Origin: Escherichia phage phiSTEC1575-Stx2k
Strand: one strand, 5' to 3'
Sequence record: OQ243220.1
DNA: 46,647 nt
This document shows positions 46,457-46,647 of the stretch, piece by piece. Position numbers and translations under genes: made by a program. The stretch's first letter is position 1; each line of letters opens with the position of its first letter. The notes under the pieces were generated by a model. The model made no database searches. It was not told where the DNA came from and was given only the letters and a program-made list of their open reading frames with translations.

Positions 46457-46647
46457 TACACGACCTCGTTATTTCGGGTTCCCATAAATCGTGGGAACCT
46501 GTGCGGGAACCTAGCGCGAGAAAAATAGCCTGAAATGTTCAAAAATGCACGATAATCCTGAAACACAGAAAACTAATCAAACCAGCGTGATGCCTGAGAA
46601 AACTGGCGCTTACTGGAGTTCTCGGTTTAGCATTGCTCCTATGCTCG

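Follow-up and report, generated by a model that had tools for sequence, protein, structure and literature searches.

Gene content at the ends of the window

The window analyzed here, a stretch of 46,647 nucleotides taken at its full length, closes with int (45359-46456, minus strand), which encodes a 365-residue tyrosine integrase of the DusA family (PF00589, E = 1.1e-20). The protein is 98.4% identical to the Int of phage mEp460 and 99.5% identical to that of phage 1720a-02, and homologues with 63-70% identity adjoin a Dus gene in Xenorhabdus, Gilliamella and Aeromonas. Next to int lies dinI (45049-45297, minus strand; PF06183), 3′ of the tail-fibre genes; that int and dinI follow the tail genes had been described in an earlier note on this DNA, and both are on the opposite strand from the tail-fibre genes. 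A lambda-type cos cohesive end, GGGCGGCGACCT, is present at 23049-23060 (plus strand) as an exact 12-nt match to lambda, confirming the mid-window cos of the same note. It stands directly upstream of the terminase genes and places the virion ends there, not at the window ends. The stx2A (17831-18790, RIP family) and stx2B (18802-19071, SLT_beta) genes identify the window as a Shiga toxin 2-converting phage. Directly upstream of stx2A are three genes for tRNAs (Met-CAT, Arg-TCG and Arg-TCT), the whole region spanning 17488-19071.

Beyond int, and running to the last base of the window, is a phage-borne surrogate for the 5′ end of dusA, here termed dusA′ (46545-46647, plus strand; codons 1-34 plus 1 nt). 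It has its own ATG and aligns codon for codon with K-12 dusA codons 1-35, and its product, translated by hand from the sequence, reads MHDNPETQKTNQTSVMPEKTGAYWSSRFSIAPMLD. In the excised form the open reading frame continues into positions 1-20 of the window (plus strand), where it ends as ..D R M Y R F stop; an equivalent 123-nt CDS in phage SKA5, annotated as ‘tRNA-dihydrouridine’, matches it in length. In the 88 bp that separate int from dusA′, a simple scan detected no consensus sigma-70 promoter for either gene.

The window ends are contiguous in the excised phage

When the end of the window (...CTCCTATGCTCG) is joined to its start (ATAGGATG...), the sequence TCCTAT-GCTCG-ATAGGA is created, a palindrome that the earlier note had reported and that was read directly here. 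Its arms form an inverted repeat of core-type half-sites, TCCTAT at 46637-46642 on the left and ATAGGA at 1-6 on the right, with base 1 doubling as the last base of the crossover core. A junction query of 1,400 nt, made from the last 700 and the first 700 bases of the window, was used to examine this junction in other genomes. Both mEp460 (a cos-ended virion genome) and SKA5 align to it unbroken from int across the junction to position 62-63. This read-through signifies that the window ends are adjacent in the excised genome and that int and dinI are owned by the phage. In mEp460 the side tail fibre is followed by DinI and int and then, after a gap of ~340 bp, by the early-left genes, among which are an exonuclease and a PrtN-like gene. 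The window represents the complete genome of a temperate lambdoid Stx2-converting phage, with ends that are contiguous once it is excised.

In E. coli chromosomes the match to the junction query starts at query position 595, and the features beneath it are a Panacea-domain protein and a partial tRNA-dihydrouridine synthase. Part of the query is matched in 938 of 5,426 complete E. coli genomes (either half of the query being counted), a figure which suggests that dusA-site prophages or their remnants are common in this species. In E. coli STEC309 a Stx2k prophage lies inside dusA. On its left, zur and a DUF2713 gene precede a dusA 5′ remnant of 105 bp; the Panacea gene follows, then early genes, stx2, head, tail, tail fibre, dinI and int, and beyond these an intact dusA and pspG. 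The dusA site of K-12 is empty. The order and orientation of the window are those of the integrated state in STEC309, so the window corresponds to the prophage permutation, oriented as dusA. The gene order had previously been read as circular rather than prophage, a reading overturned by this exact match.

Several deposited records share these boundaries. The PhiR47_1 record starts 1 nt before window base 1, and the records of PhiR40_1, PhiR47_1 and PhiR55_1 have ends within a few bases of the window end. In many deposited ‘complete phage genomes’ with a related integrase, int lies 165-205 nt from the record end, and with int so near the end such records stand in prophage coordinates. In the record of the Morganella phage IME1369_02, a 104-bp att copy is duplicated, one at each end.

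The ends meet inside an 8-bp crossover core

The core was defined by a four-way alignment of attP (the joined window), attB (K-12), and attL and attR (both STEC309). The 8-bp sequence ATGCTCGA, which is identical to host dusA codons 33-35, is the sole segment common to all four sites, and strand exchange must therefore fall there. The attB core that the earlier note had proposed to seek in an uninfected host was thus found, as the empty dusA of K-12 shares ATGCTCGA. The attP site reads GCATTGCTCCT ATGCTCGA TAGGATG, with ..CTCCT directly to the left of the core, and attB reads GCGTTGCACCA ATGCTCGA CTGGACG, with ..CACCA in that place. In STEC309, attR has phage sequence on its left side and host sequence on its right, and attL has host sequence on its left side and phage sequence on its right. 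The inverted repeat of attP has an imperfect counterpart in attB, CCAAT-GCTCG-ACTGG.

The first seven nucleotides of the core, ATGCTCG, occupy 46641-46647, and the last base, A, is window base 1. The window is cut inside the core as ATGCTCG|A, and joining of the ends restores exactly one core copy; only ~9 of 46,647 cut positions give this result, a chance of roughly 2e-4 by hand arithmetic. The linearization is therefore not arbitrary, contrary to the earlier note, which rightly took the window for a complete genome with contiguous ends (the latter confirmed by the mEp460 read-through). The complete attP covers ~46476-46647 plus 1-62, roughly 234 bp, and contains three int-proximal repeats, the first 35 dusA codons, the 8-bp core and two int-distal repeats. 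The joined window ends are almost certainly attP, and the window is written in the integrated (prophage) permutation.

Integration into dusA and its repair

The evidence for the integration site comes from STEC309 compared with empty K-12, the window itself carrying no flanks. In the lysogen, the phage-borne 5′ end reads in frame into host dusA from codon 36, and RefSeq annotates the STEC309 attR fusion as an intact DusA beside int; integration in the dusA 5′ end, with int adjoining the restored dusA, is thus seen in the near-identical STEC309 module. Were the window chromosomal, the host dusA 5′ remnant, ..GCACCAATGCTCG, would be expected before position 1 and ACTGGAC.. (host dusA codon 35 onward) after position 46647. 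The earlier note held that unrelated host genes at both ends would refute continuity, which is ill-posed: a lysogen is flanked by host sequence, yet excision joins its ends.

In the proposed mechanism, the DusA-family integrase would exchange strands within ATGCTCGA and so insert the phage ~100 bp into dusA, and the phage-borne 5′ end would restore an intact dusA next to int. Integration would also part int from the early-left block, because attP lies upstream of int. The distance between int and the early-left genes arises because attP here lies between them, unlike the lambda attP, which is downstream of int. Where attP is upstream of int, the rule derived from lambda, by which an int gene next to the tail genes signifies circular order, does not apply. 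For annotation, the consequence is that the window represents one dusA-integrating Stx2 prophage with exact att boundaries.

Two other accounts of the window ends were considered. A circular assembly or record opened at an arbitrary point near attP would fit with ends that do join and with a cos site in mid-window, which shows that the record is not in virion order. It is nevertheless very improbable, given the cut inside the 8-bp core that leaves a single copy upon joining, the order and orientation equal to the integrated state in STEC309, and the sibling records that start or end at the same place. That int and dinI belong to a neighboring element, as the earlier note had offered for the integrase, draws on their location at the extreme end of the window, after the tail-fibre genes and on the opposite strand. 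We give this account practically no weight, since the order tail fibre, dinI, int, attP and early-left genes occurs inside the packaged mEp460 genome and the gene next after int in STEC309 is the restored dusA. Furthermore, int deletion in 1720a-02 abolishes attP formation, with attP copies undetectable once int is deleted (PMC6328086).

Heptamer repeats flank the core

Five heptamers lie around the core in the joined window. On the int-proximal side are GGTTCCC (inverted; 46477-46483, minus strand), GGGAACC (46493-46499, plus strand) and a second GGGAACC (46505-46511, plus strand), centered ~-165, ~-149 and ~-137 from the core centre, respectively. On the distal side are GGGAGCC (45-51, plus strand; one mismatch) at ~+50 and GGGAACC (56-62, plus strand) at ~+61. 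The heptamers listed in the earlier note (46476-46511, with one inverted, and 45-62) are thus all present, the copy at 45-51 with its mismatch. The only other copy of GGGAACC/GGTTCCC in the 46,647-bp window is at 35820. A 233-bp stretch of the joined circle contains four of the five exact copies (P ~2e-6, by simulation of five random sites), and a genome-wide scan returned seven other 7-mers with four copies in 240 bp, all of them common (9-38 copies each). Homology among the window, mEp460 and SKA5 ends immediately beyond the outer distal heptamer (62/63), and this mosaic boundary marks the edge of the functional attP module.

The heptamers are probably arm-type integrase sites. As in lambda, the small N-terminal domain of Int would bind the heptamers and its C-terminal domains the core, such that Int would bridge the arm repeats and the TCCTAT/ATAGGA half-sites.

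The AF2 model of Int (mean pLDDT 83.6) predicts an N-terminal domain at residues 1-58 (pLDDT ~90), with strands at 2-10, 16-26 and 29-38 and a helix at 41-58, followed by a low-confidence linker (59-69), a helical core-binding region and the catalytic domain. The predicted topology of the N-domain is that of the lambda and Tn916 arm-binding domains and of the AP2 fold. The top Foldseek matches of the model are Tn1549 Int and full-length lambda Int (1z1g_A, 364 aligned columns). A Pfam scan of Int residues 1-120 at E <= 10 returned no arm-binding family, its sole extra match being a sub-threshold Int_N (residues 73-165). The predicted fold is consistent with an arm-binding domain but does not demonstrate one.

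Spacing of the repeats in related integrases

To compare the repeats more widely, attP regions were taken from relatives with Int identities of 34-100%, either intact from virion-order genomes or reconstructed from joined record ends; three bacterial prophages contributed the int-proximal arm alone. A scan of viral contigs with Int gave matches that are almost all 98-100% identical and useless for covariation, and the distant relatives were taken from tblastn against phage records. Positions are counted from the core centre throughout. In eight of the nine more distant relatives (Int identity 34-70%), 7-8 bp repeats occur at similar or identical distances; GGTGTCC is common to two of them, and the repeats of the others differ.

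The window, mEp460 and SKA5 carry GGGAACC at -165 (inverted), -149 and -137 and at +50 and +61. In the Yersinia phage YeP2, GGGGTGCT is found at -164 (inverted), -148 and -136 and at +50 and +61, and YeP2 is the only relative in which all five positions match those of the window. The Marinobacter phage AS1 has six GGAGCAC sites, at -190 and -168 (both inverted), -149 and -138 and at +70 and +81, the far-side pair being shifted by ~20 bp. The remaining relatives share the layout in part only. In IME1369_02, GGTGTCC occurs at -163 (inverted), -149, -137 and +60, and in the Pseudoalteromonas phage C5a, GGGTGACT occurs at -148, -137 and +61. The Burkholderia phage BcepIL02 has GTAGCAA at -198 and -174 (both inverted), -159, -147 and -124 and at +69 and +80; the Ralstonia phage NK-7 has GCACACC at -201 (inverted), -159 and -147, with no clear far-side copy (1-mismatch matches at +59/+82). 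On the int side, which alone was covered, a Xenorhabdus prophage has GGTGTAC at -165 (inverted), -149 and -137, and an Aeromonas prophage, in which dusA′ is longer, has GGTGTCC at -178 (inverted), -161 and -149. GGGAGCC and GGGATCC were read by eye in Gilliamella. For the ninth distant relative, the Shewanella phage M16-3, an unbiased 7-mer scan gave no repeat; the annotation of its integrase gives an amber mutation.

Variation in sequence with a largely constant spacing is expected of the arm-type sites of a heterobivalent integrase. The suggestion in the earlier note that the heptamers may be arm-type or regulatory sites near attP is right as to attP, and in their layout, as judged from sequence, the heptamers resemble arm-type sites. 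On balance, we favor the view that DusA-family integrases have a fixed attP layout in which the repeats are re-specified in each lineage and the spacing is kept. This would hold even though most of the int-side arm is taken up by dusA′ coding sequence. If this view is correct, and the N-domain reads the repeats, the family would be a naturally occurring collection of integrases that act on one target and whose arm specificity could be exchanged.

The Klebsiella phage Kp4882-1 has the repeat GGGGTGCT in common with YeP2, and its Int N-domain is 65% identical to that of YeP2 and 50% identical to that of the window; this likeness supports, anecdotally, a link between Int and the repeat. By eye, the Kp4882-1 record ends carry GGGGTGCT near int and GGGGTTCT and GGGGTCCT on the far side, and the sequence between its two repeat arms is not dusA-like. 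Its integrase looks like a relative retargeted to an AT-rich, non-dusA site.

An alternative function for the heptamers, as binding sites for RdfN or another regulator or as operators of the divergent int and dusA′ promoters, is unlikely, although it has some basis. Three of the copies lie in the 88-bp int-dusA′ gap, where both promoters must be, and, since int and rdfN are inherited together, repeats that covary with them would fit either protein. Against it, copies stand on both sides of the core at conserved, lambda-like distances (~140-165 and 50-60 bp), the mosaic homology ends exactly after the outermost distal copy, and the repeat common to Kp4882-1 and YeP2 accompanies closer Int N-domains, anecdotal as that pair is. 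In known systems, recombination directionality factor (RDF) sites are tandem repeats on one arm, so heptamers on two arms argue against their being RdfN sites. Chance alone could supply the number of copies (GGGAACC count 5, against ~5.7 expected on both strands by a rough hand estimate); it is hardly credible as a source of the clustering of four of the five and of the palindrome, given a similar layout with other sequences in eight more distant lineages. Taken as a whole, the explanation that combines an attP split at its core, a prophage permutation and arm-type heptamers is very likely the best available.

Side features were noted in two of the relatives. On its int side, C5a carries a run of three 10-bp tandem repeats, GGCAATTCAA, between the arm repeats and the core and ~90-110 bp from the latter, and the Aeromonas locus has two CAAAATAAC repeats in a similar place. 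Both sets are candidate binding sites for the RDF (RdfN).

Comparison with known integration systems

The attP system of a dusA-integrating Stx2 phage is already known and ordinary. Farrugia et al. (2015) described integrases at a single site in the dusA 5′ end in >200 bacteria, with a 21-bp semi-conserved att motif and a dusA 5′ end supplied by the element, and mEp460 is among the phage hits of this DusA-associated integrase family (PMC4482086). As in these integrases and islands (PMC4482086, PMC8409611), insertion in the window system is at the conserved ..APMLD.. codons of dusA, int is adjacent to and divergent from dusA, and a new dusA 5′ end is supplied by the element. Durand et al. (2021) identified the PrtN-family RdfN as the excision factor of a dusA-specific integrase, with int and rdfN placed across attP from each other (PMC8409611), and the window likewise has a PrtN-family RDF candidate across attP from int. 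The window shows the integrase homology, surrogate 5′ end, core and PrtN-family gene of a DusA module, and the near-identical module of STEC309 shows the dusA site; the experimental demonstration of Int-dependent integration and excision comes from the sibling phage 1720a-02 (PMC6328086).

The closest phage to the window is 1720a-02 (Phi-stx2dact, KF030445), which according to Balasubramanian et al. inserts 100 bp into dusA with a seven-base core (PMC6328086); the 8-bp core of the window is consistent with this. The ‘Phi-dusA′’ ORF of 1720a-02 (PMC6328086) corresponds to the surrogate dusA 5′ end of the window. The published attP qPCR primers for 1720a-02 (PMC6328086) map to 46476-46495 and 49-71, with 1 mismatch each, and since they flank the junction, the junction PCR proposed in the earlier note has in effect been done on a sibling phage. 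The core and the phage-borne dusA 5′ end are shared with both 1720a-02 and mEp460 (Int 98-99.5% identical) and the stx2 cargo with 1720a-02, and the attP sequence is the same as in mEp460 and SKA5, all five heptamers included. Otherwise the genomes are mosaic, and only ~56-59% of the first 25 kb aligns, at ~96-98%; mEp460 diverges right after window position 62 and is without the Panacea-domain genes.

The comparison with lambda reveals further parallels. The two attP sites are of similar size (~240 bp in lambda, ~234 bp here), and both have repeats on the two arms that differ from the core half-sites, together with inverted core half-sites around a short identity region. Like lambda Int, the protein is predicted to have a small N-terminal domain, a linker, and core-binding and catalytic domains; its N-domain has no sequence-level match to arm-binding Pfam families. 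The arm sites of lambda are divided two on one arm and three on the other. The window differs in having three proximal sites, one of them inverted, and two distal ones, in a target that lies inside a protein-coding gene repaired by the phage, and in an RDF candidate that is PrtN-like where that of lambda is Xis-like. In lambda, attP is downstream of int and the prophage starts with int; in the window, attP is upstream and int comes last in the prophage, a difference in layout rather than in mechanism.

The arm-repeat layout appears to be the sole part of the system for which we found no published description. The term ‘arm-type’ is absent from the text of PMC4482086 and ‘arm’ from that of PMC8409611, and literature searches pairing dusA with arm-site terms returned nothing relevant. 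A conserved layout could help to predict attP boundaries across the widespread DusA integrase family.

Excision and the left-edge genes

Across attP from int, the window has a PrtN-family gene (1386-1685, minus strand; PF11112, E = 3.9e-23) that closes the same-strand early-left block, and its product is, by family and position, likely the RDF RdfN. Excision would need this protein, the supply of which would hinge on derepression of the prophage; excision would also require a promoter for int in the proximal arm. In the element studied by Durand et al., Pint is constitutively active (PMC8409611). A bidirectional hairpin terminator (1347-1374) sits between the PrtN-like gene and the convergent ORF 804-1352, and would end early-left transcription before attP unless antiterminated.

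Closer to the left end, a perfect match to the sigma-70 consensus (TTGACA-16-TATAAT, 123-150) stands ahead of a LexA-box-like sequence, CTGTGTATATGTACAG (169-184), and downstream of this region (123-184) are a SocA/Panacea-domain gene (293-781) and a 182-aa ORF (804-1352). Together, 123-184 and 293-1352 may form a module under SOS control at the edge of the prophage; in mEp460 and SKA5 this position is occupied by other genes. Near the opposite end, two LexA-box-like CTGT-N8-ACAG sequences (45313-45328 and 45341-45356) overlap a promoter-like site of dinI (45313-45362), and over the whole window this motif occurs six times against 0.49 expected.
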